The notes: generated from the letters alone by a model not told the origin. DNA of 64,000 nucleotides from Candidatus Margulisiibacteriota bacterium (GCA_018822365.1 JAHJKL010000070.1:1941-65940), one strand, 5' to 3'; positions 572-38,195 are shown, counted from the stretch's first letter. Numbers and translations are program-made.

Positions 572-1993
572 TTATCCTTTATTGTTCGCCCGGTACCAGA
601 AAAAGTTTTTCGCCAGGTCGTTCCCCGCAAAATGAGTGATCTCTTCCGGCAAGATCTCTCCTGCCGGTCCGATCTTCCCAACCTCAGCGATAACTTTCTC
701 CAGATCAAAAAGCTCCCTGTTCTGGCCAGGCTTAACTTCATTAACCCGGGAAACAAGCGCCTCAACCTCCAGATCGAACAATTCCCCCAACATAACGAGA
801 TTGCTCTTTCCGCCGGCCGGCTCAACTACCGCTCCGGCCTCAACCAGCCTGCTCCCTGAAAAAATATATCTGCCCTGGGTTTCCAGATGGCTGGCCAGTG
901 GAAAAATCACTTCCTCCGCATTGTTTTTTTTAGCCGGGAAATAACGCGTCCTAACCACCAGTTTCGCCCCCCCAACCAATGGCTCCAGGTCAGAAAGGTC
1001 CTCCCCGAGCAGAAAGATCCCCTGGATCGCTCCCTGATCAAGCTTTTTCTTTAACTCATGATATGGCGCATGCCCCGGACAAAAAGCGTCGATAGCCGCA
1101 TTAACGCCGATCGTGTCGCCGCCGCTGTAAAAAACAAGCCATTTTTTATTGGCCGCTAAACCGGCCAACACCCTGGCAAAATAAACAACCAGATCATTCC
1201 GCTTTTTATTTACCCCTGGAGAAACAATGACCGTCCCTGCCGTTGCGGCGGCAAGTTCTTCGGAGACCCTCTTTAATACATCAATAGGCACACCTATCTT
1301 TTCGATCAACGGCAATATTTCCGCCTCATCTTTGCGCTTTAGCAACCCGATAAGCGCGGCCAGCAAAATTGCTTCGCTCCCCGGTTTATTCTTCAGGTGC
1401 TCGGTCGCGAACCAGGCGGCGTGAGAACGGTTAGGATCAATAACTACGATCCTGGCCCCTTTTTTGCCGTACTTAACATTATTGATCCTTTTTGAAAGTA
1501 CCGGCGAGCGGGTTAAAATGTCGCCAATGATCAATATATATTCGCTGGCTTCAACATCGGCCAATTCACCGGGCCGATCTTCTGAAACCTGCCAGGTCGA
1601 ACCAAGATAAGCGTCTTGATCGGCAGGATCTCCTCCGGCGCAGATCTGTTTGGTCCCAAGTGACACCGCTAAGGCGGCCGCCCCGCTCGCCTCTTCCAGG
1701 CTGGCCAGGGGAGAAACGACGATCCCGATCGAACCGGGGTCGATCCCTTGAAGCTCCCGGCGCACCCTGGAAAAAGCCTCTCCCCAGGAAACCCCTATCC
1801 CGCCTATGCTGGGCTGGGTAAGCCGCCCCGGATGGTTAAGCAATTCATAGTTGTAATACCCGCGAGGACATAGCGCCCCTTTATTGACCTGGCATTCCCG
1901 GTCATAATCGATCGCCTCCGCTTCACGTCCGCTGACCCGATAGGCCAGCCCGCAACCCAGCGAACAAAATAAACAAACTGATCTTTTCACCAT
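572..1993 (-). CDS. Short molybdopterin oxidoreductase catalytic subunit (FwdB/formate-dehydrogenase-like)
   Basis: The N-terminal CLFCSLGCGL motif (Cx2Cx3C) is typical of MGD oxidoreductases, and there is a candidate Mo/W-ligand Cys in 'KQICAGG'. The length of about 470 aa lacks a cap domain, as in FwdB. It is 3 nt from the downstream ferredoxin gene. Confidence 0.6.
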   Translation of the reverse strand: MVKRSVCLFCSLGCGLAYRVSGREAEAIDYDRECQVNKGALCPRGYYNYELLNHPGRLTQPSIGGIGVSWGEAFSRVRRELQGIDPGSIGIVVSPLASLEEASGAAALAVSLGTKQICAGGDPADQDAYLGSTWQVSEDRPGELADVEASEYILIIGDILTRSPVLSKRINNVKYGKKGARIVVIDPNRSHAAWFATEHLKNKPGSEAILLAALIGLLKRKDEAEILPLIEKIGVPIDVLKRVSEELAAATAGTVIVSPGVNKKRNDLVVYFARVLAGLAANKKWLVFYSGGDTIGVNAAIDAFCPGHAPYHELKKKLDQGAIQGIFLLGEDLSDLEPLVGGAKLVVRTRYFPAKKNNAEEVIFPLASHLETQGRYIFSGSRLVEAGAVVEPAGGKSNLVMLGELFDLEVEALVSRVNEVKPGQNRELFDLEKVIAEVGKIGPAGEILPEEITHFAGNDLAKNFFWYRANNKG

Positions 1994-2799
1994 GGATCAG
2001 GTATCTCCTTGACCTGCTCCCAGGTAAAGACCGGGCCATCCTTGCAGCAAAGATGGCTGCCCAGGTTGCAGTGGAAACATTTGCCGATCCCACAGCTCAT
2101 GTTCTTTTCCATCGACAGGTAAATATTTTTATCCCCGATCCCCAGGTCGAGGAGCTTTTTAGTGGCAAATTTCATCATGACCGGCGGCCCACAGACAATA
2201 GCGACCGCCAAGTCTGGTTTAACGTCGCCCGGCTGCATGATCCCGGTCACTACCCCCACCTTCCCCGTCCACGATTCGCTGCCGCGGTCAACGGTTAACA
2301 CCAGGCTGGTCTTTTCTCTTTTACCCCAGTCGGCCATTTCTTTTTTAAACGGGAGATCGTCTGGAGAGCGCGCTCCCAGGCGAAGCTCGATCTTGTTCAA
2401 TTGGTCTAGCTCATGAAAAAGGGCAAGCAGCAGGGCCCGCAAAGGAGCGATCCCCACTCCCCCTCCAATAATATAAATATCCTTCCCATGAAAATCAGGC
2501 AATGGATAAGGGCGACCGAACGGCCCGCGCAGGCCGACCATTTCACCCGGCTTAAGCTCATGCATCGCGCCGGTCGCCTGGCCGGTCTTCATCACCGTGA
2601 ATTCGATCGTTTCACTGTTTTTAGGATCGGAAGATGGAGTAAAGGGACACTCTCCCACTCCCGGCACGGTAACCTGCATAAACTGACCGGATAAAAACGG
2701 GAGACCTTTTTCCGGCTCCAGGACAAAGGTCTTGATCTGCGGCGTTTCCACGATCACTTTTTTGATCTCCGCTTTTATCGGCTGATAAGGATTGCTCAT
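1987..2799 (-). CDS. FAD/NAD(P)-binding [2Fe-2S] oxidoreductase subunit (HydG/AsrB/PyrK family)
   Basis: The N-terminal region resembles a ferredoxin-reductase FAD-binding barrel, there is a GGGVGIAP nucleotide-binding loop, and the C-terminus carries CGIGKCFHCN 2Fe-2S cysteines. It overlaps the next gene by 7 nt. Confidence 0.7.
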   Translation of the reverse strand: MSNPYQPIKAEIKKVIVETPQIKTFVLEPEKGLPFLSGQFMQVTVPGVGECPFTPSSDPKNSETIEFTVMKTGQATGAMHELKPGEMVGLRGPFGRPYPLPDFHGKDIYIIGGGVGIAPLRALLLALFHELDQLNKIELRLGARSPDDLPFKKEMADWGKREKTSLVLTVDRGSESWTGKVGVVTGIMQPGDVKPDLAVAIVCGPPVMMKFATKKLLDLGIGDKNIYLSMEKNMSCGIGKCFHCNLGSHLCCKDGPVFTWEQVKEIPDPW

Positions 2800-3845
2800 T
2801 TGTTAGGCCCACCTCTCTTTGTCAGCTCCTGATCAAGGGCGCAGAAGACCTGGCGCATATCGATGTTCCCGGCGCACCCATCGATACATCGGCCGCACCC
2901 GACACAGGTATAACGGGCTAAACGATCAAAAGAATAGTCAAATTTACAGTGATAGCGGTTTTGCAGCCGCTGGGCAAGCCTGGGCCGGGAGTTCCCCCCT
3001 CCCGCCACCTTGGCATAGCCCGCTTTCAAACAGGCATCCCAGAGTTTATGGCGTTTTCCCCCCAGGCCAACCGCCTCATCAACCAATAAAAAACAGGAAC
3101 AGGTCGGACAGATAAAATTACAAGAACTGCATTCAACGCAATCCTTGGTCAGCTCGCGCCAAACCCCGCTCTCCAGATTTCCCTTATGAAGCTCATGGAG
3201 CTCGTGATCAAAAGAAAATTGCCGGTTCGCCTGTTTTAGTTTTTCTTTAACTTTTTCGCGGGTCTCGCTTTTGATCGCTTCCGCCTGCGGCAGGACCCTG
3301 GCAAAAATATTCCGCTGGTCGTCAACGATCCTTTTCCCCCTGTCACTCCCTACCTCCACGACATATCCGTTAGGAACAACCGCTAGGCTTAGGTCAAAAC
3401 ACCTCGTTGGGAAAGGGGTCCCGCCAACCAAAGGGCAAAAACAGCTGTTGCCGCAATCGGTGCAGTCGGCTCCGATTAAAATCGTTTTTTCGCGGTTGAC
3501 CTGGTAAAAGGGGTCCTGAAACTCTCCTTCGCCGAAAACGCGGTCCAAGACGCTCACGCCCTCCAGGTCGCAGGCGCGCAAACCAAGCAAAACAAGCGGA
3601 CCGGCCGAAATATGGGCTTCCCCCGAAAAATAACGGGCCACCAACTCGGTCGTTTTAAAAAAGTACCCTTTGCCTGGTTCAACCGTTCGATATCCTGAGA
3701 GGTCTATTTTGTCTATATTGCTGCCGTCAACATCAAACCAATATTTGCGGCCATATTCCCTGGCCGGAGCAACAACGTGAGCTTTTTCCATCAGCTGTCT
3801 GATCAATTTTTCAAAGTCTTTATTGTTAACAAAATACTCACTCAT
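2796..3845 (-). CDS. 4Fe-4S dicluster subunit (sulfhydrogenase beta / AsrA-like)
   Basis: The cysteine clusters are CTDCGNSCFCP, CVECSSCNFICPTCSCF and CVGCGRCIDGC. It is the first gene of the operon and overlaps the downstream gene by 4 nt. Confidence 0.65.
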   Translation of the reverse strand: MSEYFVNNKDFEKLIRQLMEKAHVVAPAREYGRKYWFDVDGSNIDKIDLSGYRTVEPGKGYFFKTTELVARYFSGEAHISAGPLVLLGLRACDLEGVSVLDRVFGEGEFQDPFYQVNREKTILIGADCTDCGNSCFCPLVGGTPFPTRCFDLSLAVVPNGYVVEVGSDRGKRIVDDQRNIFARVLPQAEAIKSETREKVKEKLKQANRQFSFDHELHELHKGNLESGVWRELTKDCVECSSCNFICPTCSCFLLVDEAVGLGGKRHKLWDACLKAGYAKVAGGGNSRPRLAQRLQNRYHCKFDYSFDRLARYTCVGCGRCIDGCAGNIDMRQVFCALDQELTKRGGPNK

Positions 3846-3917: not shown

Positions 3918-4379
3918 ATGCCAATTAACTTATTGATCTTACTGCTAGGCCTGACTTTTTGGACGGTGCTCACGCCTCCCCACATGTCCAACACCGAAGC
4001 GGTCTTTCAGGCCCGGCCGGTCATCAGCGCGACCATCGGCGAGAAAACATATGAACTGGAGATCGCGGACGACCTGGCCAAACGGGGTCGCGGTCTCTCA
4101 TGGCGTAAATCACTGGCCAAAAACCGGGGAATGCTCTTCCTTTTTGAAAAACCGGACCAATATGTTTTTGTTATGGACGGCATGCTTTTTCCCCTGGATT
4201 TTATCTGGCTAAAACAAGGGGTTGTTGTTGCCCTTAAAGAAGATGTCCAGCCGTCCAAACCGGACCATTCCTCGACCAATATCGTTACCAATACACATTT
4301 TGATCAGACGATCGAACTCAACGCCGGAGAAATAAAAACAACCCATATAAAGATCGGCGATCGTGTTTCTTATTTTTGA
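3918..4379 (+). CDS. DUF192 (COG1430) family protein with N-terminal TM/signal segment
   Basis: The DUF192-like core 'GMLFLFEKPDQYVFVMDGMLFPLDFIW' is present, and there is an N-terminal hydrophobic segment. Confidence 0.55.
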   Translation: MPINLLILLLGLTFWTVLTPPHMSNTEAVFQARPVISATIGEKTYELEIADDLAKRGRGLSWRKSLAKNRGMLFLFEKPDQYVFVMDGMLFPLDFIWLKQGVVVALKEDVQPSKPDHSSTNIVTNTHFDQTIELNAGEIKTTHIKIGDRVSYF

Positions 4380-4410
4380 CTATTGTCGTGAATAATGATA
4401 TAAATTAGCC

Positions 4411-7400
4411 ATGAACAAGCCCAAATACTCGATCTCCAAACAGAATGAATTTGTGATCGGGAACTACAATCAGGCCCCGACTTTTTCCAGTTTTTTTCCC
4501 GGAATAGCGGGTATTTTTGGCTGTCCAATGTGGGTTTTTTACGCCAATCGGGGGCAGTGTATCGCCTCTGCCGGCGTCCAGGACAAGAACGGGGCGATCA
4601 TTGAGTTCCACGCCGCTAACAAAGCCTACCGAAATGCCCATCTGCAGGGGTTCAGGACTTTCCTGAAGGTCGACGGCCAATTCTACGAACCATTTGCCGA
4701 AACCTCCCCCTGCCAGAACGAGCTCCGGATCAATCCTTACGATATCAAGCTTATCGAAGAAAACCCCGATCTTAAGATCAGGGTCGAAGTTCATTTTTTC
4801 AATATTCCCGATGAGCATTTCCCGGCCCTGGCCCGGACGGTCAAGATCGTTAATCTGGGTAAAAAAGCCCGCCAGGTAGAAGTTGTCGACGGCCTGCCGA
4901 TCATCATCCCCTTTGGCTTTGAAGATTTCCTCCTCAAGAAAATGAGCCAAACGATCGAGGCCTGGTGCATTGTTGAAAATCTTGATCAGGGGGTCCCCTT
5001 CTACAAGCTAAAGGTCCTGCCGGCCGACAACGCCGAAACCAAACTGCTTAAAAAAGGGAACTTCTACCTCCCTTTCTGCCAGGATGGCCAGCCGGTCGCG
5101 ACCATCGTCGACCCAACGGTCGTCTTTGGCGAAAACAGCAGCCTGGAGAGGCCGGACAATTTTTTGGGTAAAAGTTTTAAAGTACCCGGAAAGCAAATGA
5201 CCGATGGATTTACTCCGGCCGCCTTTGCCCACAAGAAATTCACCCTGACCGGTGATTTTGAGCTCTCCTCGATCATTGGCCAGATCGACAGCCTCGACCT
5301 GCTAAATAACGACAAACCCCGACTGATGAGCCGAAGCTACCTGGAGGCAAAAGCTGCCGCCAACCAGAACCTGATCAATGGGATCGGCGATTCAATGGAC
5401 ATCCGGAGCGCCAGCCGGAGCTTTGATCTTTATTCCCGCTACACCTTTCTGGACAACGTCATGCGGGGAGGGCTCCCGCTCATGATCGGCGGCAAACCGA
5501 TCTATCTCTACTATCGCAAGCATGGCGACATGGAACGCGATTACAACGACTTCAAACTTATGCCAACCTATTTTTCCCAGGGGAACGGCAACTACCGCGA
5601 CATTAATCAAAATCGGAGGAACGACCTGTTTTTTAACCCGGAGATCAAAGAGAGCAACATTGTCCGCTTCTTTAACCTGATCCAGCTTGACGGCTTCAAC
5701 CCGCTGGTCGTGCTGGGGAGCAAATATTTCATCGAGTCGTACCACACCGCGGAAACGCTGGCCAAGAAACACCTGCGGGAACCGGAAAAGCAGGCGATCG
5801 AAAAGATCGCCCGGCCGTTCATTCTGGGCGAGCTGCTCAAAGAATTTGAGCTCGAAGGGGTCCAATACCAGACCACACGCGAGGCCTTTGCCTCCGACCT
5901 GCTGCAGAGCAGCGAGGTCGAGGAAGGGGCGGTCCATGGCGAAGGGTTCTGGATCGACCATCCCTTTTACAACACCGATTTACTGGAAAGTTTTGAGGCG
6001 GTCTATCCCGACCGGATCACCGACGTTCTCTTTAACCAAAAAAACCTGACCTTTTTCGACAATGATCATGTCGTCGTCCCGCGCCAGGAAAAATACAAGC
6101 TCTGTGACGGCAAGGTCCGCCAGTATGAAAGCGTAAAACTTGATCCCGAAAAAGCGGCCCTGATCAACCACCGGGCTGTCAACAAAAACGCCGTCCGGGT
6201 CGACCACGGCAAAGGGAAGATCTACCATACCACCCTGGCGGCCAAGCTCCTCTGCCTGATCGCCAATAAAGCGGCCACCTTTGATGCCGCCGGGATCGGC
6301 CTGGAGATGGAGGCCGACAAGCCCGACTGGTATGATGCTCTTAACGGACTGCCGGGGCTTTTAGGCTCCTCCTTGTCCGAAACCCTGGAGCTAAAAAGAG
6401 TAGCCGCCTACCTGCTCTTGCGCCTGGAAAACGGGAAGGAGCTCGTCTTGCCGGCCGAAGTCAAAGAATTTATCGACCACCTGCTCCCCATCCTGGCCGA
6501 AACAGACAGCCACAAATATTGGGAGACAACCTACCAGCTGAAAGAAAAGTACCGCCAGAAAATCAAACTTGGGATCGCTGGGAGCGAAAGCGCCATTGGA
6601 CCACAGGAAACGGAGCGGCTGCTCGGGCTGGTTATTGCCCGCTGCGACCAGGCAGTGGAAAAGGTCTTGTCCAAATACGGCAATTACTACACCTATTTCG
6701 TCAACGAGGTCAGCTCGTACGAAGAGCTAGGCCAGGAGATCAGGGTCAAAGGGTTTTGCCAGAGCCCCCTGCCTCTCTTCCTGGAGGGGTTTGTCCACGC
6801 GCTCAAGGTCGAACGGGACGCGAGCATTTACCAGCGGGTCAAAGAGAGCCCGCTCTTTGACAAAAAACTGAAGATGTACAAGGTCAATGCCCCGCTGACC
6901 GAAATGCCGGTCGAGATCGGCCGGACCCGGATCTTTGCCCCAGGCTGGCTGGAGAACGAATCGGTCTTTGTTCACATGGAATACAAATATTTGTTGGAAT
7001 TATTAAAGGCCGGATTATACAAGGAGTTCTTTACCGACTTCAAAAACGTGCTGGTCCCTTTTATGGACCCCAGGGTTTACAAGCGGAGCATCCTGGAGAA
7101 TTCTTCGTTCATCGTCAGCTCCGCCCACCCCAACGCCAAAAATCACGGACGGGGTTTCATTGCCCGGCTCTCGGGCGGGGCAGCCGAATTCATCGACATG
7201 TGGCTGACCATGACTACCGGGAAAAGGCTCTTCTTCCTCGATCAGACGGGAAAGCTCTGTTTCCAGCTCAAGCCGGTCCTCCCCGCCTGGCTTTTTAAAC
7301 AGGGGGAATTAAGCTTCAGGCTTTTTGGCAAGATCGAGGTCGTTTACCTCAACTCCAAAAGAAAAGATTCCTTTGACAAGCTCCCTCTCTCCTATAAATT

Positions 7401-7509
7401 ATTTTTTGACGACAAAGAAATCGAGATCGCCCACCCCATTATCCAAGAACCTTACGCGTCAATGATCAGGGAGCGGAAGGTCAAAAAGATCGTGGCGCGC
7501 CTCTCTTAG
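4411..7509 (+). CDS. Large (1032 aa) GH94-clan-like glycoside phosphorylase (candidate GH149/GH161-type)
   Basis: The motifs 'NGNYRDINQNRRND' and 'DKPDWYDALNG' parallel the GH94 'GFRDSNQDTLG' and 'ADWNDCLNLDQG' catalytic-region motifs found in the neighbouring GH94 gene. It is co-oriented with the GH42 and GH94 genes. Confidence 0.5.
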   Translation: MNKPKYSISKQNEFVIGNYNQAPTFSSFFPGIAGIFGCPMWVFYANRGQCIASAGVQDKNGAIIEFHAANKAYRNAHLQGFRTFLKVDGQFYEPFAETSPCQNELRINPYDIKLIEENPDLKIRVEVHFFNIPDEHFPALARTVKIVNLGKKARQVEVVDGLPIIIPFGFEDFLLKKMSQTIEAWCIVENLDQGVPFYKLKVLPADNAETKLLKKGNFYLPFCQDGQPVATIVDPTVVFGENSSLERPDNFLGKSFKVPGKQMTDGFTPAAFAHKKFTLTGDFELSSIIGQIDSLDLLNNDKPRLMSRSYLEAKAAANQNLINGIGDSMDIRSASRSFDLYSRYTFLDNVMRGGLPLMIGGKPIYLYYRKHGDMERDYNDFKLMPTYFSQGNGNYRDINQNRRNDLFFNPEIKESNIVRFFNLIQLDGFNPLVVLGSKYFIESYHTAETLAKKHLREPEKQAIEKIARPFILGELLKEFELEGVQYQTTREAFASDLLQSSEVEEGAVHGEGFWIDHPFYNTDLLESFEAVYPDRITDVLFNQKNLTFFDNDHVVVPRQEKYKLCDGKVRQYESVKLDPEKAALINHRAVNKNAVRVDHGKGKIYHTTLAAKLLCLIANKAATFDAAGIGLEMEADKPDWYDALNGLPGLLGSSLSETLELKRVAAYLLLRLENGKELVLPAEVKEFIDHLLPILAETDSHKYWETTYQLKEKYRQKIKLGIAGSESAIGPQETERLLGLVIARCDQAVEKVLSKYGNYYTYFVNEVSSYEELGQEIRVKGFCQSPLPLFLEGFVHALKVERDASIYQRVKESPLFDKKLKMYKVNAPLTEMPVEIGRTRIFAPGWLENESVFVHMEYKYLLELLKAGLYKEFFTDFKNVLVPFMDPRVYKRSILENSSFIVSSAHPNAKNHGRGFIARLSGGAAEFIDMWLTMTTGKRLFFLDQTGKLCFQLKPVLPAWLFKQGELSFRLFGKIEVVYLNSKRKDSFDKLPLSYKLFFDDKEIEIAHPIIQEPYASMIRERKVKKIVARLS

Positions 7510-7530
7510 TTTTGCTACAATGTGTGAACT

Positions 7531-9300
7531 ATGTACCCTTTTGGCGTAACTTTTTACCCCGACCAGTGGCCGCTCGGCACCTGGGAGGAGACCTTTAAAA
7601 AGATCAAAGAGAGCGGTTTAAATACTATTCGTTTTGGTGAGATGGCCTGGGACTGGGTCGAGCCGGAACCGGGGAAGTACCGCTTCTACGACCTTGACCG
7701 GGCGCTCGACCTTTGCGAAAAGATCGGCCTGCAAGTTCTGCTGGGCCTCCCTACCTCCCAGGTCCCAAGCTGGTTTTATCGAAAATACCCGAACAGCCGG
7801 CCGGTCGCCCAGGACGGGACCCTCTATCCGGAATACGGTCCCCGACCCAATATCTGCAAAGACAATCCCCATTACCGGATGCACGCCGAAAAACTGGTCC
7901 GAACTATGGTCAAGCGCTACAGCAAGCATCTGGCGGTCGCTATGTGGCAGGTCGACAACGAACCGGTCTATCCACCCCTTGACCACACCACCTCCAACGA
8001 CTTTTGCCACTGCGAACATTCCCGCCAGGCCTTTATTAAATGGGCCAGGGAAAAATACGGAACGATCAAAAAACTGAACGATGCCTGGGGGACCAGGTTC
8101 TGGACGACTACCTTCTTCTCTTTTAACGATATCCTGACCCCCAAAGCGGGGATCTGGGAAGCGGTTTCTCCGCATATTTTCCTCGACTGGTTCCGTTTCA
8201 AGACCGACAGCTTGAGCCAGTGGATCAACCACCTGGCCGACGTTGTCCGGGAATACGATAAATTCCACAAGGTTGGGACCAACGGCTTTGTCGGGATCTG
8301 CACCCGGGTTCCCGACCACAGCAAAATGGTCGGCAACCTCGACTGGTACGGGCTCGACATTTACCCCAAAGGGGGACGGATGGACCCGCAGGGGCTCGCC
8401 TTCCACTATGACCTGTGGCGGAGTTTTGTGAGGGGGACCAAAGCAGAATTCCACATCACCGAACTCCAGGGGGGACAGAATGTCCGCTGGGGCGCCCCGG
8501 AATATGTCGAGGGGCCGGAGATCCGCGGCTGGACGACCGCCGCGCTCGAGCATGGAGCCGAAGCGATCCTCTACCACGCCTGGCGGCCGCCGCTGTTTGG
8601 CGCCGAGACCGGCGGGTTTGGCATTTGCAATGTTGACGGATCATCCAGCAAGCGGCTGGAAGTAATCAAGAAGCTTGCCGGAGACATTCGCTCCGGCAAA
8701 CTTAAAAAAGCCAATTGCAAAGCTAAGCTCGCGATCGCTTATTTGCGAAGCAGTGAGATCCAGTCGTATCAGGAGCAAGGCCCGCCGCGCGGCATTGCCG
8801 GACAATGGGAAGCGGTCAGGGGCGATATCGGGATAATGTATTCGATCCTGTCGCTGGGAGGAGCTTATTCGGTCCTTTTCCAAAAAAGCGAACCGGCCGA
8901 TTTTATTTTTGAGCGCGAACTTGATAGCGGCGACCTTCCTTATAAAGTTATTTTAATGCCAAACCCCTACCTGCTTTCTCAAAAGCAATACGATAATCTG
9001 AAAAAATGGATCAGCGCCGGCGGCAAGCTGATCACCGAAGCCCGCTTTGGCCTGAAAAATGAAATGGGGCATCTGCTTGAACACCCCTTTCTGGAAGACC
9101 TGATCGGTGAAAAGTACGAATTCACCGCCCCCACTCCAACCGGCTTTATTGACGGACTGCAAGGTCGCCCGCGCAAAGAACAAGTTTTCACCAAGAAGAT
9201 CGGCAAGGGAAAAGCGGTTTACGCCAACTTCAGTCTCTTTTTGCAGATCAAGAACGGCAATAAAAAGTTGGCCAACCTGGTCAACAAAGAGCTGGCCTAA
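7531..9300 (+). CDS. GH42-family beta-galactosidase-like glycoside hydrolase (short, 589 aa)
   Basis: The N-terminus 'FGVTFYPDQWPLGTWEETFKKIKESGLNTIRFGEMAWDWVEPEPGKYRF' matches the GH42 TIM-barrel start. An 'VDNEPVY' acid/base-type motif and 'HITELQGG' are present. Confidence 0.7.
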   Translation: MYPFGVTFYPDQWPLGTWEETFKKIKESGLNTIRFGEMAWDWVEPEPGKYRFYDLDRALDLCEKIGLQVLLGLPTSQVPSWFYRKYPNSRPVAQDGTLYPEYGPRPNICKDNPHYRMHAEKLVRTMVKRYSKHLAVAMWQVDNEPVYPPLDHTTSNDFCHCEHSRQAFIKWAREKYGTIKKLNDAWGTRFWTTTFFSFNDILTPKAGIWEAVSPHIFLDWFRFKTDSLSQWINHLADVVREYDKFHKVGTNGFVGICTRVPDHSKMVGNLDWYGLDIYPKGGRMDPQGLAFHYDLWRSFVRGTKAEFHITELQGGQNVRWGAPEYVEGPEIRGWTTAALEHGAEAILYHAWRPPLFGAETGGFGICNVDGSSSKRLEVIKKLAGDIRSGKLKKANCKAKLAIAYLRSSEIQSYQEQGPPRGIAGQWEAVRGDIGIMYSILSLGGAYSVLFQKSEPADFIFERELDSGDLPYKVILMPNPYLLSQKQYDNLKKWISAGGKLITEARFGLKNEMGHLLEHPFLEDLIGEKYEFTAPTPTGFIDGLQGRPRKEQVFTKKIGKGKAVYANFSLFLQIKNGNKKLANLVNKELA

Positions 9301-9380: not shown

Positions 9381-11723
9381 ATGTCTAAGTACGGTCATTT
9401 CGACAAAAAGAATAAAGAGTTTGTGATCACCCGCCCCGACACCCCGCTCCCCTGGATCAATTATTTAGGAGCCGACGAATATTGCGCCCTGATGTCAAAC
9501 ACTGCGGGAGGCTACAGTTTTCATAAAGACCCGAAAGAGCGGCGGCTGACCCGCTACCGCTACAATAACGTCCCAATGGACCGCGGTGGTCGTTATATTT
9601 ACATTCGCGACAACAAAACCGAAAAGTTTTTCTCCCCCTCCTGGCAGCCGACCATGAAACTCGACAAATACGAATGCCGCCACGGGATCGGCTACACTGT
9701 CATTAACTCTGAGTACGCCGGGGTCAAGACCAAGACAACCTATTTTGTCCCGCTTGGTGAAAACCTGGAGATCTGGATGCTCGAGATCAGCTCCAATAAA
9801 GATCGCGATCTCTCGGTCTTCCCGTTTGTTGAGTTCTGTCTCTGGGATGCCTTAAACGACATGACCGACTATCAATACAACCTGAATATCGGCCAGACCG
9901 AATACAAAGACGGGATCATCTATCACCTCTCCCGCCACCGGGTCAATCCTGATCTCGTCGGTTTCCTCGCCTGCGCCAACGCTCTGCCAAAAGGTTTTGA
10001 CACCCAGCGCCGCGACTTTATGGGAACTTACGGCGATTTCTCCGCCCCGCGCGGGGTCGTCGAGGGAAAGATGAAAAACTCGATCGCCTGCGGCTGGTCG
10101 CCGGTCGGCGCGCTTAAGATCCCGGTCAAGCTGAAAAAAGGGGAAACAAAAACCCTGATCTTTGTCCTCGGCTTTGAAGACAATCTCGAAGGTCCGGCAA
10201 AGAAAGTGAAACAGTTCAGCAAGAAAGAAGTCATTGAAAAAGAGCTCAAGAAGCTGGCCGAATACTGGGAAGGGAACCTCAATAAGTTTGCCGTCGAAAC
10301 CCCTGATGAAGAACTGAACCTGATGGCCAACGTCTGGAACCAGTACCAGTGCCGGACCACCTTTAATTGGTCCCGCTCCGCTTCTTATTATGAATCAGGG
10401 ATCGGCCGCGGCATGGGGTTCCGCGACTCCAACCAGGACACCCTCGGTTTCGTTCACATGATCCCGGGTAAAGTTAAAGAACGGATCAAAGACCTGGCCG
10501 CCACCCAGCTAAAAGATGGGAGCGCCTACCACCAATATTCACCGCTCTACAAGAAGGCCAATCCTTCCGACCACAAATACGGCGACGACCACCTCTGGCT
10601 GATCTTTTCAACCGCCGGTTATGTTAAAGAGAGCGGCGATCTTAACTTCCTCAAAGAAGAAGTGACCTTCGCGGGCGAAGATTCCGGGACAATGTACGAA
10701 CATCTCGCCCGGGCGATAGGCTTCTCGACCTCCAACATCGGCGAGCACGGGATACCGCGGATCCTTTTTGCCGACTGGAACGACTGCCTCAACCTGGACC
10801 AGGGAAAAGGAAAAGCGGAATCGGTCATGGTGGCACAGATGCTGGTTGGGGCCGCGTATGAAATGGCCAAGCTAGCCGAACTCCTCGGTAAAAAAGAAGA
10901 CGTCAAAAAATACACGACTATTGCCGATGAGATGAAAGCGGTGATCAACGAAAGGTGCTGGGATGGCCAATGGTACACCCGCGCTTATACCGATGAGCTG
11001 GAACCTGTTGGCTCCAAGAGCTGCAAGGAAGGGAAGATCTATCTGGAAAGCCAGGCCTGGGCGGTCCTCTCGGGCACTGCCGATGAAGAACGGGCCAAGC
11101 AGTGCATGGATTCAGTAAAGAAAAACCTCTCGACCGAACACGGGATCATGGTCATGACCCCGCCTTACTCCAAGTTTTACTGGCAGCTTGGTTCGATCGG
11201 CGTTTATCCGCCGGGACTCAAGGAGAACGGCGCGATCTTCTGCCACCCTAACCCGTGGGCAATGATCGCCGAGTGCCTGATCGGCCGCGGCGACCAGGCT
11301 TACGCTTATTACCGGGCGATCCTCCCTTCGGCCCGCCTCAAGATCGCCGACCTGCACAAGACCGAACCGTACGTCTACTGCCAGATGATCGCCGGCCGCG
11401 ACCACAAGGATTTTGGCGAAGGGAAAAACTCCTGGCTGACCGGCTCCGCCTGCTGGAACTTTGTCGCCATGTCGCAATATATCATCGGGGTCCGCGCTGA
11501 CTATAAAGGGTTGATGATCGACCCGTGCATTCCCAAGGCTTGGAAAAGCTTTACCGCCCACCGGGAATTCCGCGGAGCGATTTACAATATCTCAGTTAAA
11601 AATCCTAACGGGGTCAGCAAAGGGATCAAACAAATCTCGATAGACGGCAAAGAATTAAAATCCAATGTTTTGCCGGTCGGCAAAGCGGGACAAGAATATA
11701 ACATTGAAGTTGTAATGGGGTAG
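9381..11723 (+). CDS. GH94 disaccharide phosphorylase (cellobiose/laminaribiose phosphorylase family)
   Basis: The N-terminus 'FDKKNKEFVITRPDTPLPWINYLG...NTAGGYSF' is a classic GH94 start. The motifs 'GFRDSNQDTLG' and 'ADWNDCLN' are present, and there is an RBS AGGAA upstream. Confidence 0.8.
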   Translation: MSKYGHFDKKNKEFVITRPDTPLPWINYLGADEYCALMSNTAGGYSFHKDPKERRLTRYRYNNVPMDRGGRYIYIRDNKTEKFFSPSWQPTMKLDKYECRHGIGYTVINSEYAGVKTKTTYFVPLGENLEIWMLEISSNKDRDLSVFPFVEFCLWDALNDMTDYQYNLNIGQTEYKDGIIYHLSRHRVNPDLVGFLACANALPKGFDTQRRDFMGTYGDFSAPRGVVEGKMKNSIACGWSPVGALKIPVKLKKGETKTLIFVLGFEDNLEGPAKKVKQFSKKEVIEKELKKLAEYWEGNLNKFAVETPDEELNLMANVWNQYQCRTTFNWSRSASYYESGIGRGMGFRDSNQDTLGFVHMIPGKVKERIKDLAATQLKDGSAYHQYSPLYKKANPSDHKYGDDHLWLIFSTAGYVKESGDLNFLKEEVTFAGEDSGTMYEHLARAIGFSTSNIGEHGIPRILFADWNDCLNLDQGKGKAESVMVAQMLVGAAYEMAKLAELLGKKEDVKKYTTIADEMKAVINERCWDGQWYTRAYTDELEPVGSKSCKEGKIYLESQAWAVLSGTADEERAKQCMDSVKKNLSTEHGIMVMTPPYSKFYWQLGSIGVYPPGLKENGAIFCHPNPWAMIAECLIGRGDQAYAYYRAILPSARLKIADLHKTEPYVYCQMIAGRDHKDFGEGKNSWLTGSACWNFVAMSQYIIGVRADYKGLMIDPCIPKAWKSFTAHREFRGAIYNISVKNPNGVSKGIKQISIDGKELKSNVLPVGKAGQEYNIEVVMG

Positions 11724-11744: not shown

Positions 11745-11766
11745 AGGAAATCGATTTCCTATTTTA
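11745..11766. terminator. Bidirectional hairpin terminator between convergent genes
   Basis: A perfect 16-bp palindrome AGGAAATCGATTTCCT is followed by ATTTTAT, lying between the GH94 stop (11723) and the stop of the minus-strand gene (11759). Confidence 0.4.
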
Positions 11767-12310
11767 TGGCAACTACCTTCGTCTTGGCGATCGTTCGACC
11801 GTCAACCACGACCCTGACAAAGTAGACCCCGTTGTCTACGGCTTCGCCAAAGACAGATCTGCCGTCCCAGACGACCCGGCTATAGCCGTCACTGCCGCGA
11901 TTGGCGCTGGTATCCGAGATCAGCCTGATCAAACTCCCCGACAGATCAAAAATATAGGCTTTTACCGGGGCATCGGTCGCATATTTATAGGCAATGGTCA
12001 CCGGCTGGCTTTCCGGAATAAATGGGTTGGGGTAAACCAGGGTCTCTCCTTCGCCGCTCGGGATTATCGCGACTGCTCCTCCCGCTTGGGGAAAAAGCGG
12101 CGTATAGACCATTGACGCCAATCCGACGCTTCCTCCGTAGCTGCCGCTGCAGATCAATCCGGCGATGCTTTCCCCCGCTACTCCATAATTAATAAAATTT
12201 GTTCCGGTAGAAGTGGCCGGACCCATGGTTAACGCCTCCGGGCTGGTGCTATAAGCAAACCCGGGGGATAAAAACAAAACCAGGCACACAATGACCAGGA
12301 GTAATCTCAT
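11759..12310 (-). CDS. Secreted protein with FlgD-Ig-like / T9SS-type C-terminal sorting domain
   Basis: There is an N-terminal signal peptide (MRLLLVIVCLVLFLSPGFA). The C-terminal 'YPNPF...YIFDLSG...WDG...NGVYFVRV...K' pattern matches Por_Secre_tail / FlgD Ig-like domains. Confidence 0.55.
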   Translation of the reverse strand: MRLLLVIVCLVLFLSPGFAYSTSPEALTMGPATSTGTNFINYGVAGESIAGLICSGSYGGSVGLASMVYTPLFPQAGGAVAIIPSGEGETLVYPNPFIPESQPVTIAYKYATDAPVKAYIFDLSGSLIRLISDTSANRGSDGYSRVVWDGRSVFGEAVDNGVYFVRVVVDGRTIAKTKVVAIK

Positions 12311-12379: not shown

Positions 12380-13273
12380 ATGAAAACGATTAATTGCGCG
12401 GTTACGTTGCTATTGTTTTTTTGCTTGGCCGTTCCCGCGCTGGCCGTGCCGCAATATTTAAATTATCAGGGGGTCTTGCGTGACGACCAGGGACGCCTGG
12501 TTGCCGGGACCAAGTCGCTGACCTTTAAGCTCTATGATGTTTCAACATCCGGGACCTCTCTCTGGGAAATGACCTCCCCCGAAGTCGCGGTCAATAACGG
12601 CCTCTATAATGTTCAGCTTGGCCCACTTGGTTACGCCGAGCTTGCCTCCGGCCGCCGCTGGCTCGAAATTGCCATTGGGACAGAAACTCTTTCTCCCCGG
12701 CTCGAGATCCTCTCCGTCGCCTACGCGGTAACGGCGGGCCAGGCCGAATCGGCGACCACTCTTGGGGGATACTCTCCAGCCATAACCGGGAGCGGGAGCT
12801 TTATTCCGGTCACAACTAGCGGAAAACTTGATGCGTCAGTCATTCCAACTTCCAGCGGCGGAAATGCCGATACGGTCGACAGCTTTCACGCCAACTCAAC
12901 CGCTACCGCCGGGCAGATCTTGCCCCTTGACAGCAATAAACAGCTCAAAGGGATGTCGGTTTCAGCGGAGGCTAGCGGGAACAATTACGCTTTGTTTGTT
13001 AATGGAGGGAAATTTGGGGTTAAAACCGGATCGAACATGAGCGTGGGGACCGGAACGATTACAACAGCTAGCGGGGTCTCCTTTGTCGATGTTACCAACA
13101 CAAGTATTACACCAAATAGTTTAGTGTTTCTAACAGTTGGATCTGCTGGCGCAAACAGTCATGGGGGAATAAAAGTTACAACCATTACTAATGGAGTAAA
13201 GTTTAGAGTTGCTACAATGGACAGTAGCCCTGCAACCGTTGATATCCCTTTTAATTATCTAGTTATTAATTAA
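12380..13273 (+). CDS. Secreted beta-rich protein with N-terminal 'INYQG' motif (tail-fibre-like module)
   Basis: There is a signal peptide. The stretch 'VPQYLNYQGVLRDDQGRLVAGTKSLTFKLYDVSTSGTSLWEMTSPEVAVNNGLYNVQLG' is a motif recurrent in large secreted proteins of uncultivated bacteria. The rest is Ser/Thr/Gly-rich. Confidence 0.5.
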   Translation: MKTINCAVTLLLFFCLAVPALAVPQYLNYQGVLRDDQGRLVAGTKSLTFKLYDVSTSGTSLWEMTSPEVAVNNGLYNVQLGPLGYAELASGRRWLEIAIGTETLSPRLEILSVAYAVTAGQAESATTLGGYSPAITGSGSFIPVTTSGKLDASVIPTSSGGNADTVDSFHANSTATAGQILPLDSNKQLKGMSVSAEASGNNYALFVNGGKFGVKTGSNMSVGTGTITTASGVSFVDVTNTSITPNSLVFLTVGSAGANSHGGIKVTTITNGVKFRVATMDSSPATVDIPFNYLVIN

Positions 13274-14241
13274 TAGGAACAAGTATTAATCGAGAAGTCT
13301 AGCAATTGAGGTGTGTCAACTACATTTGGCGATGTAAAAACAAATCTAACGTTTGCACATTGTTTATCAAATCCGTTATCAGTTTGAATTAAATCTCCAT
13401 TTAATGGCAACCAGGCGGACCAATTTGATCCGCAGTCTCCATTTTGAGTTTCAACATAAATATTTGTCCCATTTTGGCTCAAAATATTCATAACAACATT
13501 GGCTCCGTTTCCAAGATTATTTGGCAATGGAACGTTAATTGCTACTAGATATGAACCATATGTCTGCCCATTTAATATTAATGCGCCAGCAACTGAAAAA
13601 GGGTCTAAACTCCCAGATGGATCAACAGTCCCTATGATCCAGTTGTCTGTCTCAGAATAATTCTGTGGCGCGCAAACCGGCCCATCGGCTACGTCCGCTT
13701 CTGCCTCAACAACATCCTGAATCACATCTTCGGTAATGTCCGGAATTATATCCTGCGCGATATCCTCAATAACATCGGGGATAATATCCGGTTTAATATC
13801 TTCCGCAACATCCTGGACCACATCTTCGGTAATGTCCGGGATAACATCAAGTAACGTGTCCAGAGGGGAATCTTGTTCCACGTCAGGTAATACATCCGGC
13901 AAGACATCAGGGGTGTCGTTGTCCACATCAATAATAGTATCCAGCGCGACATCGGCTAAAGCGTCGGCCTCTTTCCCCCCGTCTAAGACATCTTCAACCG
14001 TATCGGTTAAAACATCTTTACCGTCAACGTCGGTCAATGAGGCATCGGTTAATGTTTGCTCTTTTCCCGGCGCGAGCATCTCCGCGGCAAAAGAACAACC
14101 GATTGCCAGATGAGCGGCGGTTGCCATCGCCGCTAAGCCTGACAATTGGCCAAGCTTGGCGGCCCGTATATTTGGGGTTGCTTTTGGCATCGATGTTTGT
14201 GGACGAATCCTGGAAACCATTACCGACAATCTACTGATCAT
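13270..14241 (-). CDS. Secreted (lipo)protein with acidic 8-aa tandem repeats and a Cys-containing C-terminal domain
   Basis: The ATG at 14241 is preceded by a GGAGGG RBS, and the signal peptide ends in a lipobox-like AIGC. About 15 repeats of the type 'PDI(T/I)EDV(V/I)Q' occupy residues ~60-190. The ORF-track TTG at 14253 is less likely to be the start. Confidence 0.55.
   Translation of the reverse strand: MISRLSVMVSRIRPQTSMPKATPNIRAAKLGQLSGLAAMATAAHLAIGCSFAAEMLAPGKEQTLTDASLTDVDGKDVLTDTVEDVLDGGKEADALADVALDTIIDVDNDTPDVLPDVLPDVEQDSPLDTLLDVIPDITEDVVQDVAEDIKPDIIPDVIEDIAQDIIPDITEDVIQDVVEAEADVADGPVCAPQNYSETDNWIIGTVDPSGSLDPFSVAGALILNGQTYGSYLVAINVPLPNNLGNGANVVMNILSQNGTNIYVETQNGDCGSNWSAWLPLNGDLIQTDNGFDKQCANVRFVFTSPNVVDTPQLLDFSINTCSY
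13690..13900 (-). repeat. In-frame 24-nt tandem repeat array (encodes the D/I/V-rich octapeptide repeats)
   Basis: A visible 24-nt periodicity (e.g. ggtaatgtccgggataacatc / ggtaatgtccggaattatatc variants) encodes 'DITEDVVQ/DVAEDIKP/DIIPDVIE...'. Confidence 0.6.
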
Positions 14242-15547
14242 TTTTCCCTCCAATATTCACCATTGACAGCGAAAAGTTGGTCTGGCCAAATTGCAATAAG
14301 TGGTTCCGCCTGATCTGCCTTAGCTCGTCAACAAAGACCCGGGCCGAAGGATGGCGGTTCTCAGCTTTTTTTTGAAATGCCTTGGTAAAAAAATCCGACA
14401 GCGGTTCGCCCAGAAAGGCAAAATCAGGAAGCGGGATGTTCTCGTCCATTACCCGCCGGCCGTAGGCCGAGGCATCATCGGTCGGCTTGATCGGATAAGG
14501 GGCTCGTCCCGTGATCAGCTCAAAAACAATGACCGCCAGGGCGTAATAATCGGCCCGCCAATCTGCCTCTTCCCCCCGCCAGACTTCCGGCGACATATAA
14601 AGAGGGGTACCAAATACTCCTTGTTTATAAGCTTGAGTAAGCTTGAGCGATTTTTTCCCCAGATCACGCCTAACATATTTGGCCAAACCCCAGTCACCGA
14701 TCTTGAAGCGATCGCGATCTTCCCCTTCGGTCCGGTAGACAAAAATGTTGTCAGGTTTAAGGTCGCGGTGGACTATCCCCTCCCTATGGACCGACAGCAA
14801 AGTCTCGCCGATCGAGATCGCCAGGTCCAGAACATAATCAACCGGGAAATGGTTGACCCCTTCCTGCTGTTGTTTTTTTTCAACAATGTTTTCCAACGTT
14901 CCTGAAGGCATAAATTCCATGGTAATGTATGGGATCGAACCATTAAAACTATGCAGTGGCCTGCCAGTGAGGGCGGTAAAGGTCTTCGGGCTAAGCCGAC
15001 CCAGGTCATAAAGATGGACCACCCCTTCGATCACCAGTCTCGCCTGGTTTCTCGCTTCCGCGCTTTCAAACCGGGCGATCGTCGCCGGGTCATTGAGCGA
15101 CCCTTCAAGCGGTATTTTTAACACGACATCCAGGTCAAGGCGCCGGTCATAGGCTAATATTGTTGACGCCATCCCTCCCTGGCCTAACGGTCTTTTGACC
15201 TCATAACGCTCCATAAATGACTGGTGAAGGTGGTCTTCTTTCATCGCCTGGAGAGCTGTCATTTCACCTTTTTGCAATTCCAGCTCTGCCGCATTGCCGG
15301 CTAACGTCAGTCGATCAGAAACCAAGACCTTATGCGCGCCATAACCCAACACCGCGCTCGCCAATGCCGCGACCAGGTGCGACCACGGCTTATAGAGCGG
15401 GTCGTTAAAAGAAGCTCTGACGCTCCCGTAGGCCCCGCCAACCGCACAAGCCGCGATCAATGCCCCCCTGGCTACATTGGAAGCAACTCGATGCCGGTTG
15501 GCCAACCCATCAACTCGAGCCAGCTGTTTAGTGATCGAACTGACCAT
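14231..15547 (-). CDS. Hanks-type Ser/Thr protein kinase, N-terminally membrane-anchored
   Basis: Kinase motifs are GQGGMASTI (Gly-rich loop), VVLKIP, HRDLKPDNIF, IGDWGLA and GTPLYMSPE. Two hydrophobic segments lie at the N-terminus. The start ATG overlaps the upstream stop (TAATG). Confidence 0.8.
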   Translation of the reverse strand: MVSSITKQLARVDGLANRHRVASNVARGALIAACAVGGAYGSVRASFNDPLYKPWSHLVAALASAVLGYGAHKVLVSDRLTLAGNAAELELQKGEMTALQAMKEDHLHQSFMERYEVKRPLGQGGMASTILAYDRRLDLDVVLKIPLEGSLNDPATIARFESAEARNQARLVIEGVVHLYDLGRLSPKTFTALTGRPLHSFNGSIPYITMEFMPSGTLENIVEKKQQQEGVNHFPVDYVLDLAISIGETLLSVHREGIVHRDLKPDNIFVYRTEGEDRDRFKIGDWGLAKYVRRDLGKKSLKLTQAYKQGVFGTPLYMSPEVWRGEEADWRADYYALAVIVFELITGRAPYPIKPTDDASAYGRRVMDENIPLPDFAFLGEPLSDFFTKAFQKKAENRHPSARVFVDELRQIRRNHLLQFGQTNFSLSMVNIGGKNDQ

Positions 15548-37481: not shown

Positions 37482-38111
37482 TTGGGAATAATTTCAGCTG
37501 TTATAAGAAATATTGGGGGGCAAATTAAACCAAGATCACCATGCCTTGTTAATAGAGGACCATATCGCCTCCCCGGCAATACGGCTCCCGTTCAACCACA
37601 AGAAGCCTTTATCAGAGAAAAGCTCGCGAGAAGCATTTCAACGATGAGGACTGATAAAGCCGGCAGGATTACGTATCTTTCGTTGAAAAATATAACCGAT
37701 AGCGACATTCCCCCATTGCAAGCCTTGTCTAATTTGCAGCGGTTGTACTTATGGGGAAGTCAAGTTTCAGATGCCGGTTTGTCTCACCTCTCATCTCTCT
37801 CTAACCTGCAAGAATTGTATCTTTTTAGCAGTCTTGTCACTGATGCCGGCCTCCCCTCTCTTTCATCCTTATTAAATCTGCAAATATTGTATCTGCGTAA
37901 CGCTCAAATTACTGATGCCGGCCTCCCACAACTCTCTCACCTGTCAAATTTATATTGGTTGGATCTAACAGGCGCCAGAGTCTCTGACCTAGGTTTAGCG
38001 CATCTTTTATCCTTAACTAATTTGCAGCGGCTGGAACTAAGGCACACCCAGGTTACGGAAGCCGGGATCACTAATTTTAACAAAACAATGCCAACCTGTA
38101 ATATTTATTAA
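37482..38111 (+). CDS. Leucine-rich repeat protein (24-aa RI/Cys-containing-type LRRs)
   Basis: There are six repeats of the form 'LSxLSNLQxLYLxxxxVTDAGLxxLSxL'. No signal peptide is present. The start is TTG or a downstream ATG (MRTDK). Confidence 0.65.
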   Translation: MGIISAVIRNIGGQIKPRSPCLVNRGPYRLPGNTAPVQPQEAFIREKLARSISTMRTDKAGRITYLSLKNITDSDIPPLQALSNLQRLYLWGSQVSDAGLSHLSSLSNLQELYLFSSLVTDAGLPSLSSLLNLQILYLRNAQITDAGLPQLSHLSNLYWLDLTGARVSDLGLAHLLSLTNLQRLELRHTQVTEAGITNFNKTMPTCNIY

Positions 38112-38120
38112 CGCCCTAAC

Positions 38121-38156
38121 GTCCTGGCCACCGATACCTGGGCAAGGACCGCCTAA
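38121..38156 (+). repeat. Degenerate duplicate of the dxr 3' end (12 codons plus stop)
   Basis: 'gtcctggccaccgatacctgggcaaggaccgcctaa' encodes VLATDTWARTA*, compared with the dxr terminus 'atcctggctgccgatacctgggccagatcaaattaa' (ILAADTWARSN*). The downstream 'cctgaaattcc' also echoes 'cctgaattttc' found after dxr. Confidence 0.55.
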
Positions 38157-38195
38157 CAACCTGAAATTCCCGCCGATAGTTGACGACGTTTTTTT

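Follow-up and report, generated by a model that had tools for sequence, protein, structure and literature searches.

A GH161 family phosphorylase encoded beside GH42 and GH94 genes in a Candidatus Margulisiibacteriota genome

In a 64,000-nucleotide stretch of a Candidatus Margulisiibacteriota bacterium genome (GCA_018822365.1, JAHJKL010000070.1:1941-65940; hereafter the window, with positions counted from its first letter), we identified an intact member of glycoside hydrolase family GH161, which shares a clan with GH149 and GH94 but belongs to neither. The open reading frame (ORF; 4411..7509, plus strand) runs from an ATG start to a stop over 1032 codons and is followed on the same strand by genes for a GH42-family glycosidase and a GH94 phosphorylase. 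The product is very probably a cytoplasmic, catalytically competent GH161 enzyme in an operon-like GH161-GH42-GH94 triad, and its likeliest role is the intracellular breakdown of imported beta-gluco-oligosaccharides. Enzymes of GH161 are inverting phosphorylases that use phosphate to release glucose as alpha-glucose 1-phosphate (G1P) from the non-reducing end of beta-1,3-gluco-oligosaccharides. Family membership, fold, conservation of catalytic residues and synteny were computed here.

The GH161 gene and its parts are as follows (aa, amino acids; AF2, AlphaFold2):

4411..7509, plus strand: GH161 phosphorylase gene, predicted beta-1,3-gluco-oligosaccharide phosphorylase, 1032 aa (ORF, phmmer, Foldseek, invariant residues)
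4411..5286, plus strand: N-terminal beta-sandwich, about aa 1-292, approximate limits (strand-rich in the AF2 model; hhalign to the GH94 N-terminal supersandwich)
5293..5463, plus strand: helical linker, about aa 295-351 (model helices H295-305, H308-329 and H336-351)
5464..7224, plus strand: catalytic (alpha/alpha)6-barrel region, about aa 352-938, approximate limits (helix-rich in the model)
5581..5625, plus strand: motif GNGNYRDINQNRRND, aa 391-405 (conservation; profile alignment to GH94 'GMGFRDSNQD')
6310..6348, plus strand: catalytic loop EADKPDWYDALNG, aa 634-646 (W640 and D642 invariant; matches 'KPGWYDALNG' of PDB 9qqk)
6334-6336, plus strand: D642, predicted catalytic acid, within EADKPDWYDALNG
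6946..6975, plus strand: WLENESVFVH, aa 846-855, with E848 and H855 (aligned to 'GLKENGAIFCH' of the neighbouring GH94 by BLASTP and hhalign)
7096..7179, plus strand: ENSSF ... ARLSGG segment, with S899 and S921 as predicted phosphate ligands (alignments; constant +8 offset to THA_1941)
7225..7506, plus strand: C-terminal beta jelly-roll, about aa 939-1032 (strand-rich C-terminus of the model, pLDDT above 90)

Family assignment and catalytic residues

Using phmmer against PDB, residues 10-987 were matched to residues 4-990 of 9qqk, annotated 'GH161 phosphorylase / GH161A' (E = 1e-219, 735 bits), and 9h8v was matched equally well. Sequence is the basis on which CAZy delimits families, and this PDB match is decisive. 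The AF2 model (m5132c7267ba0, from a 20-sequence alignment; mean pLDDT 76.6, pTM 0.80) had as its top Foldseek matches 9gy9 and 9qqk (TM-score 0.83, 36-37% identity), which are titled 'cryo-EM structure of bacterial beta-1,3-glucan phosphorylase from family GH161' and 'GH161 phosphorylase in complex with beta-1,3 glucooligosaccharide', respectively. Next came the GH149 enzyme Pro_7066 (6hq6; TM-score 0.72, 15% identity) and then the GH94 enzymes laminaribiose phosphorylase (LBP; TM-score 0.66) and cellobiose, chitobiose and cellodextrin phosphorylases (TM-score 0.46-0.55), with a Foldseek probability of 1.00 for the model against the GH149 and GH94 structures. By its fold and by the catalytic motifs common to GH94 and GH149, the protein belongs to clan GH-Q. 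The initial annotation had proposed a large relative within the GH94 clan, possibly of GH149 or GH161 type, which was right and can be narrowed to GH161.

That the protein might instead be a GH149 enzyme, an unusually long GH94 or a degenerate, non-catalytic relative is scarcely conceivable. Its one match in NCBIfam is the GH149 model (GH149_beta_1_3, E = 9.5e-29), and it shares motifs with GH94; however, the GH149 score of 99.7 bits lies below the equivalog cutoff of 1150, so membership of GH149 was rejected, in line with the low identity and TM-score to 6hq6. Pfam gave no match at E of 0.01 or below, including to the GH94 models PF17167 and PF06165, because Pfam has no GH161 model and not because homology is lacking. 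No GH94 domain is thus assigned, and the family-invariant catalytic residues are all present, so that Pfam, NCBIfam, PDB, Foldseek and conservation results have already refuted this reading. No usable literature was found on PDB 9qqk, 9h8v, 9sr2, 7c63 or 7x0i, on 'GH161A' or on a Margulisbacteria cellobiose phosphorylase.

The (alpha/alpha)6-barrel region contains all of the conserved catalytic motifs. When the protein was aligned with 131 full-length family representatives (36-48% identical to it), 77 columns were at least 97% conserved and the family residue is kept at every one of them, including W640, D642, R369, R376, R396, D397, Q400, N401, R402, R403, E848, H855, S899 and R919. The W640-Y641-D642 loop and residues R396, D397, Q400, N401 and R403 are invariant in this alignment and in two further alignments of 20 and 60 sequences, while R402 is invariant in one and at least 90-97% conserved in the others. 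E848 and H855 are likewise invariant in the family alignments, and for S921 the alignment of 20 sequences shows conservation of at least 90%. These conserved active-site loops are also the segments with pLDDT below 50 in the AF2 model (aa 24-79, 368-396, 505-518, 635-647, 831-852 and 894-921), likely because the alignment is shallow and the loops become ordered only in the dimer or with ligand.

When the protein is aligned pairwise and by profile with the neighbouring GH94, E848 falls opposite E615, H855 opposite H622 and S921 opposite T687. In the numbering of C. gilvus cellobiose phosphorylase (CBP), obtained from a CBP alignment, these GH94 residues are E659, H666 and T731, which we take to be functional residues, with E659 binding the glucosyl residue and H666 the phosphate. 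E848 is accordingly predicted to be the glucosyl-binding glutamate and H855 the phosphate-binding histidine. According to a preprint on the GH161 enzyme THA_1941, D625, within W623-N624-D625, is catalytic, E840 binds the glucosyl residue, and phosphate is bound by R345, R373, S891 and S913. The first of these motifs corresponds to W640-Y641-D642 (offset +17), whereas E840, S891 and S913 fall on E848, S899 and S921 with a constant offset of +8; S899 and S921 would therefore be the counterparts of S891 and S913, and we infer counterparts of R345 and R373 as well.

The ORF and the four motifs quoted in the initial annotation, GNGNYRDINQNRRND and EADKPDWYDALNG in the GH161 protein and GMGFRDSNQDTLG (aa 344-356) and FADWNDCLNLDQG (aa 463-475) in the GH94 protein, are real and were all located. 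Direct BLASTP of the two proteins did not support the quoted motif pairs significantly: the best high-scoring segment pair (E = 0.032) lies in another segment, and the one with DW.D has E = 8.6 alone. In contrast, hhalign of the 60-sequence GH161 profile against a GH94 alignment gave E = 5.9e-5 over 350 columns and paired SQGNG--NYRDINQN with ESGIGRGMGFRDSNQD, which makes GNGNYRDINQNRRND the counterpart of GH94 'GMGFRDSNQD' in the donor-subsite and phosphate region. With a shallow profile against one sequence the match was weak (probability 4%, E = 0.0093) and covered the C-terminal WLENES..H and ARLSG segments. The motif pairs are truly homologous positions, as revealed by profile and structure comparisons and not by pairwise BLASTP. 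The suggested motif similarity thus extends to a significant alignment, and comparison with the GH94 barrel, proposed as a check, agrees with it (Foldseek probability of 1.00, with the predicted catalytic aspartate and phosphate-binding residues conserved). The aspartate of DW.D, named there as catalytic in GH94, is D642 in the GH161 protein, the probable equivalent of THA_1941 D625 in a family-invariant loop.

The partner genes and conservation of the triad

The genes that accompany the GH161 gene, together with a candidate promoter, are listed below:

7531..9300, plus strand: GH42-family glycosidase gene, 589 aa, middle of the triad (Pfam Glyco_hydro_42, E = 6.6e-85)
9381..11723, plus strand: GH94 phosphorylase gene, 780 aa, catalytic Asp D468 (Pfam GH94 domains)
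3918..4379, plus strand: DUF192 gene, 153 aa, directly upstream of the GH161 gene (Pfam DUF192)
4376..4404, plus strand: candidate promoter TTGACT-17 nt-TATAAA, ending 6 nt 5' of the ATG at 4411 (read by eye from the sequence)

The GH94 gene starts 1.87 kb 3' of the GH161 stop, and its product, 252 aa shorter than the GH161 protein (780 vs 1032), matches the GH94 catalytic domain (E = 6.9e-160) and supersandwich (E = 1.3e-78) in Pfam. It scores 868 bits to Clostridium thermocellum CBP (3qde) vs 99.9 bits to the laminaribiose phosphorylase PsLBP (6ggy, about 900 aa), and a role as LBP was rejected on these scores; the sequence derives from CBP and is not LBP-like. About 15 residues are missing right after the catalytic ADWNDCLNL, corresponding to the loop N495-E509 (C. 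gilvus/C. uda numbering) that holds T508, and the protein has D at N156, D at N163, Y at R166, S605 at E649 and P623 at N667. The loop deletion and D156, D163, Y166, S605 and P623 are invariant in five syntenic orthologues. The closed +1 site of a strict CBP (loop N495-E509, N156, N163, R166, E649 and N667) is therefore not found here. The loop is present in CBPs, absent from cellodextrin phosphorylases and blocks subsites +2/+3, and the changes N156D/N163D/T508I/E649G/N667A open CBP to cellobiose as acceptor (PMC7471185; for the roles of the cleft positions see also PMC10572201). The neighbouring GH94 is altered at all five of these engineered 'OCP2' positions, in addition to R166, and looks like a natural open-cleft CBP. 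Since all five cleft-closing positions are changed, it is predicted to act on oligosaccharides and probably not strictly on a disaccharide. BpGH94MLG, a GH94 of CBP or chitobiose phosphorylase size with an open pocket, cleaves cellotriose and G4G3G but not disaccharides.

The GH42 protein has 1kwg as its best PDB match (E = 3.7e-57), and its catalytic residues are intact (acid/base N-E in QVDNEP, nucleophile E in HITELQ). The gaps between the genes are 21 nt (GH161-GH42) and 80 nt (GH42-GH94), and the next gene downstream is convergent. A signal peptide was not evident at the N-termini of the GH161, GH42 and GH94 proteins.

We fetched ten Margulisiibacteriota/WOR-1 loci with a GH161 at least 57% identical to that of the window, and all ten have the order GH161-GH42-GH94, an order missing from virtually every locus whose GH161 is 48% identical or less. 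The short GH42 (589 aa in the window, with intact catalytic residues) is kept between both phosphorylase genes in all Margulisiibacteriota/WOR-1 loci. Directly upstream of the triad, eight of the ten loci encode a sugar-binding lipoprotein (SBP; SBP_bac_1) and a GlmS-like protein of the glutamine-fructose-6-phosphate aminotransferase type, without adjacent permease genes (for example L003, 6760-9942, where the SBP gene spans 6760-8100; likewise L004, L005, L007-L010 and L012). In the window and its closest relative, the DUF192 gene and a divergent oxidoreductase/hydrogenase cluster replace the SBP and GlmS genes, both of which are missing from the 64-kb window. The SBP of the relatives best matches the PDB sugar-binding protein 7c63 (398 bits), followed by C. 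thermocellum CbpB (305 bits), which binds cellodextrins G2-G5 and laminaribiose and is homologous to a Thermus beta-glucoside-binding protein (PMC9601137).

HMMER against 1.84 billion cluster representatives gave at least 588 representatives (50%-identity clusters) at E below 1e-30, and at least 581 loci in GTDB species genomes encode relatives of the GH161 protein. The best 80 of these loci belong mainly to Omnitrophota and Margulisiibacteriota, and also to Endomicrobia, Planctomycetota-labelled metagenome-assembled genomes (MAGs), Cloacimonadota and others. The annotation of a Candidatus Margulisbacteria MAG includes a partial protein with 100% identity, and among full-length proteins the nearest relatives (57-82% identity) come from Margulisiibacteriota, Saganbacteria or WOR-1. 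In most distant lineages the GH161 gene stands alone amid housekeeping genes. An Anaerolineaceae locus (L064, 8047-13477) encodes a GH161 followed at once by a 917-aa GH94 with 1237 bits to 6ggy and is a canonical GH161 and LBP pair.

Several family members stand out. An Anaerolineae locus (L082, 1-16558) is unusually phosphorylase-rich, with a GH161 and three GH94 paralogues within 16 kb, of which the first (819 aa) has a short catalytic loop, the second (909 aa) is LBP-like and the third (861 aa) is a canonical CBP with the long loop. A GH161 homologue with 42% identity is encoded on a contig labelled Candidatus Hodarchaeota, an Asgard archaeon (L086, 9772-12978), and could reflect horizontal transfer or a binning error. 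Another homologue (P0121, 1345 aa) has an N-terminal extension of about 330 residues, with the match beginning at residue 333.

The TTGACT-TATAAA element was not returned by a consensus promoter scan. Its position 6 nt before the ATG, together with the lack of a Shine-Dalgarno sequence before the GH161 start codon, suggests a transcript that is leaderless or has a very short leader. Terminator-like sites were no commoner than in shuffled sequence, and the promoter and terminator scan gave no information on operon limits. Co-transcription of the DUF192 gene with GH161 is possible, but DUF192 probably does not belong to the cluster functionally; it was rejected as a component because it is kept only in the closest relative (L001/L002), with SBP and GlmS in its place at other loci.

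Further genes of the window include the divergent cluster (572-3845, minus strand), which encodes molybdopterin-oxidoreductase/NuoG-like, FAD/NAD-binding and 4Fe-4S (sulfhydrogenase beta/gamma-like) proteins and in the closest relative (L001) runs on into a membrane-bound [NiFe]-hydrogenase/complex-I-like and antiporter-like module. On the other side lie genes for a small protein with a C-terminal sorting domain of the type IX secretion system (11759-12310, minus strand) and for a 297-aa protein that weakly matches Bdellovibrio mosaic adhesive trimer fibres (N-terminus) and K1 capsule lyase (C-terminal domain) (12380-13273, plus strand); this pair is kept beside the cluster in L001/L002. Two eukaryote-type Ser/Thr protein kinase genes (14231-15547, minus strand, and 37482-39080, plus strand), one of which adjoins a leucine-rich-repeat protein gene, were detected in an otherwise housekeeping region. 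The remainder of the window holds only housekeeping genes.

Proposed function and alternatives

From these comparisons we infer the substrate linkage, chain length, direction of flux and division of labour among the three enzymes. PapP from Paenibacillus polymyxa and THA_1941 are beta-1,3-glucan phosphorylases, and the reaction is reversible. By analogy, imported beta-gluco-oligosaccharides would be trimmed from the non-reducing end in the cytoplasm. The GH161 enzyme would phosphorolyse beta-1,3 linkages with inversion, D642 being the general acid and alpha-G1P the product; R396, D397, Q400 and E848 would grip the glucosyl residue in subsite -1, and H855, S899, S921 and conserved arginines the phosphate. 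The open-cleft, CBP-like GH94 may phosphorolyse beta-1,4 linkages of oligomers, and GH42 could serve as an accessory hydrolase for a residue or disaccharide left untouched by both phosphorylases. The beta-glucoside-type binding lipoprotein of an ABC transporter, encoded before the triad in most relatives, makes uptake-fed intracellular breakdown the likeliest role.

Several observations weigh against this assignment. GH42 enzymes are typically beta-galactosidases, and it is not obvious what they would contribute to the breakdown of beta-glucans. The partner GH94 is CBP-like and not LBP-like, which is a poor fit to a pure laminarin pathway. The GH161 enzymes that have been characterised or solved share only 36-41% identity with the Margulisiibacteriota clade, and confidence in the AF2 model is low precisely at the active-site loops. 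No transporter, secreted endo-glucanase or phosphoglucomutase was found near the cluster or in the rest of the 64-kb window, and the sole sugar-metabolic genes that this search turned up are a distant sugar-1-phosphate nucleotidyltransferase and PGI (52.5-54.6 kb).

The initial annotation had also combined the GH161-type enzyme with a GH94 disaccharide phosphorylase into a complete phosphorolytic pathway for laminarin or beta-glucan. A functional link between GH161 and GH94 is plausible (PMC6484121), but the scores to CBP and LBP and the open cleft do not support a disaccharide phosphorylase. As the GH94 is not LBP-like and the intervening GH42 (7531-9300) had been left out of account, the complete laminarin pathway was an over-reading; the description fits the Anaerolineaceae pair of GH161 and LBP-type GH94 instead.

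It is distinctly unlikely, though less so than the other alternatives, that the protein is a true GH161 but the triad acts on mixed-linkage beta-1,3/1,4-gluco-oligosaccharides, or on some other hetero-oligosaccharide, and not on a laminarin-type glucan. GH161 would then take beta-1,3-linked glucose off cello-oligosaccharides (G3G4G to G1P and cellobiose), and GH94 would remove beta-1,4-linked glucose at a degree of polymerization (DP) of at least 3. PapP elongates beta-linked disaccharides whatever their linkage, cellobiose among them, and the GH94 is derived from CBP with alterations at the five 'OCP2' positions and R166. The open-pocket BpGH94MLG, as described above, cleaves G4G3G and cellotriose but not disaccharides. 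The SBP of relatives resembles the cellodextrin/laminaribiose binders CbpB and betaGlyBP, and the occurrence of GH161 with a true LBP in other phyla marks the Margulisiibacteriota pairing as a different choice. Yet this alternative draws wholly on inference from the residues of the neighbouring enzyme, the cluster contains no mixed-linkage endoglucanase (GH16, GH5 or similar), phosphorolytic GH161 specificity for mixed-linkage substrates has not been reported, and the role of GH42 is unaccounted for.

Highly improbable is a mainly synthetic or turnover role of GH161 on an endogenous intracellular beta-1,3-glucan, such as a storage or osmoprotective polymer. GH161 was first found via heterokont storage-glucan metabolism, and GH149/GH161 enzymes of Euglena and Ochromonas, which mobilise paramylon and chrysolaminarin, offer an analogy. 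The reversibility of the reaction, the lack of a transporter or secreted glucanase near the cluster in the window, and the solitary position of the gene amid housekeeping genes in most distant lineages would also agree with such a role. However, intracellular ratios of inorganic phosphate to G1P normally favour phosphorolysis, no beta-1,3-glucan synthase is linked, and the secreted sugar-binding lipoprotein encoded directly before the cluster in eight related loci points to uptake.

Breakdown of imported beta-gluco-oligosaccharides by the triad would assign an ATP-saving beta-glucan route to a hydrogen-metabolising sister lineage of Cyanobacteria, and relatives of this GH161 are often found in uncultured phyla (Margulisiibacteriota, Omnitrophota and Endomicrobia). 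The most interesting leads are the naturally open-cleft CBP-like GH94 and the GH42 partner. For enzymology, the GH94 combines deletion of the cleft-closing loop with N156D/N163D/E649S/N667P-type changes, and it could serve as a ready catalyst for the defined synthesis of cello- or mixed-linkage oligosaccharides. A bolder proposal, which we consider doubtful, is that (SBP-GlmS-)GH161-GH42-GH94 constitutes an undescribed phosphorolytic module for mixed-linkage or decorated beta-gluco-oligosaccharides, with the GH94 as a natural open-cleft CBP derivative and a GH161 of differing acceptor specificity. The GH94 carries naturally all five kinds of change that engineers put into CBP for longer acceptors.

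Comparison with known systems

The protein belongs to a known family, and its locus is a form, specific to the lineage, of an already known type of cluster, mildly unusual in its GH42 and atypical CBP-like GH94 partners. With the GH161 proteins PapP, THA_1941/TaCDP (Thermosipho africanus), 9gy9, 9qqk and 9h8v it shares collinear full-length homology and the four-part architecture, and its helical linker agrees with the GH94/GH149/GH161 architecture described for THA_1941. Like the characterised GH161 enzymes, it has the W-x-D loop, the Glu/His/Ser ligands, a cytoplasmic location as predicted and a GH94 encoded nearby. Unlike them, it comes from Margulisiibacteriota and not from Firmicutes, Thermotogae or heterokonts, is 36-41% identical to known members, and is accompanied by GH42 and a CBP-derived GH94, whereas known GH161s are found with GH1/GH3/GH30 beta-glucosidases or an LBP-type GH94. 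Known members also differ in chain length, with PapP needing DP of at least 3 and THA_1941 accepting glucose.

GH149 enzymes (Pro_7066, 6hq6; Euglena EgP1) have the clan GH-Q, the fold (TM-score 0.72) and the beta-1,3-glucan reaction type in common with the protein, but they are about 100 residues longer and 15% identical, and it is not a member. GH94 enzymes (3qde/2cqs, 6ggy and 5nz7) are of the same clan and have the same catalytic machinery, with equivalent motifs in GH94 and GH161 (FRD..NQD and YRD..NQN; DW(N)D and DW(Y)D; (K)EN....H and (L)EN....H). They nevertheless form a distinct family, being 11-14% identical to the protein, which is 120-250 residues longer than the CBP and LBP types (780-913 aa) and about 20-40 residues longer than cellodextrin phosphorylase (990-1009 aa).

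For GH94-GH161 tandems, Kuhaudomlarp et al. 2019 (PMC6484121) suggested that the two enzymes, encoded side by side, carry out phosphorolysis in sequence, so that the general idea is already known. As in those tandems, the GH161 and GH94 genes described here are clustered in the same orientation, relatives encode an ABC binding protein close by, and the role proposed is the sequential phosphorolysis of an imported beta-gluco-oligosaccharide. They differ from the tandems in that GlmS is conserved upstream in relatives, with the copy in the window lacking SBP and GlmS neighbours, in the insertion of GH42, and in a GH94 that appears to be an open-cleft CBP derivative and not the presumed disaccharide enzyme.

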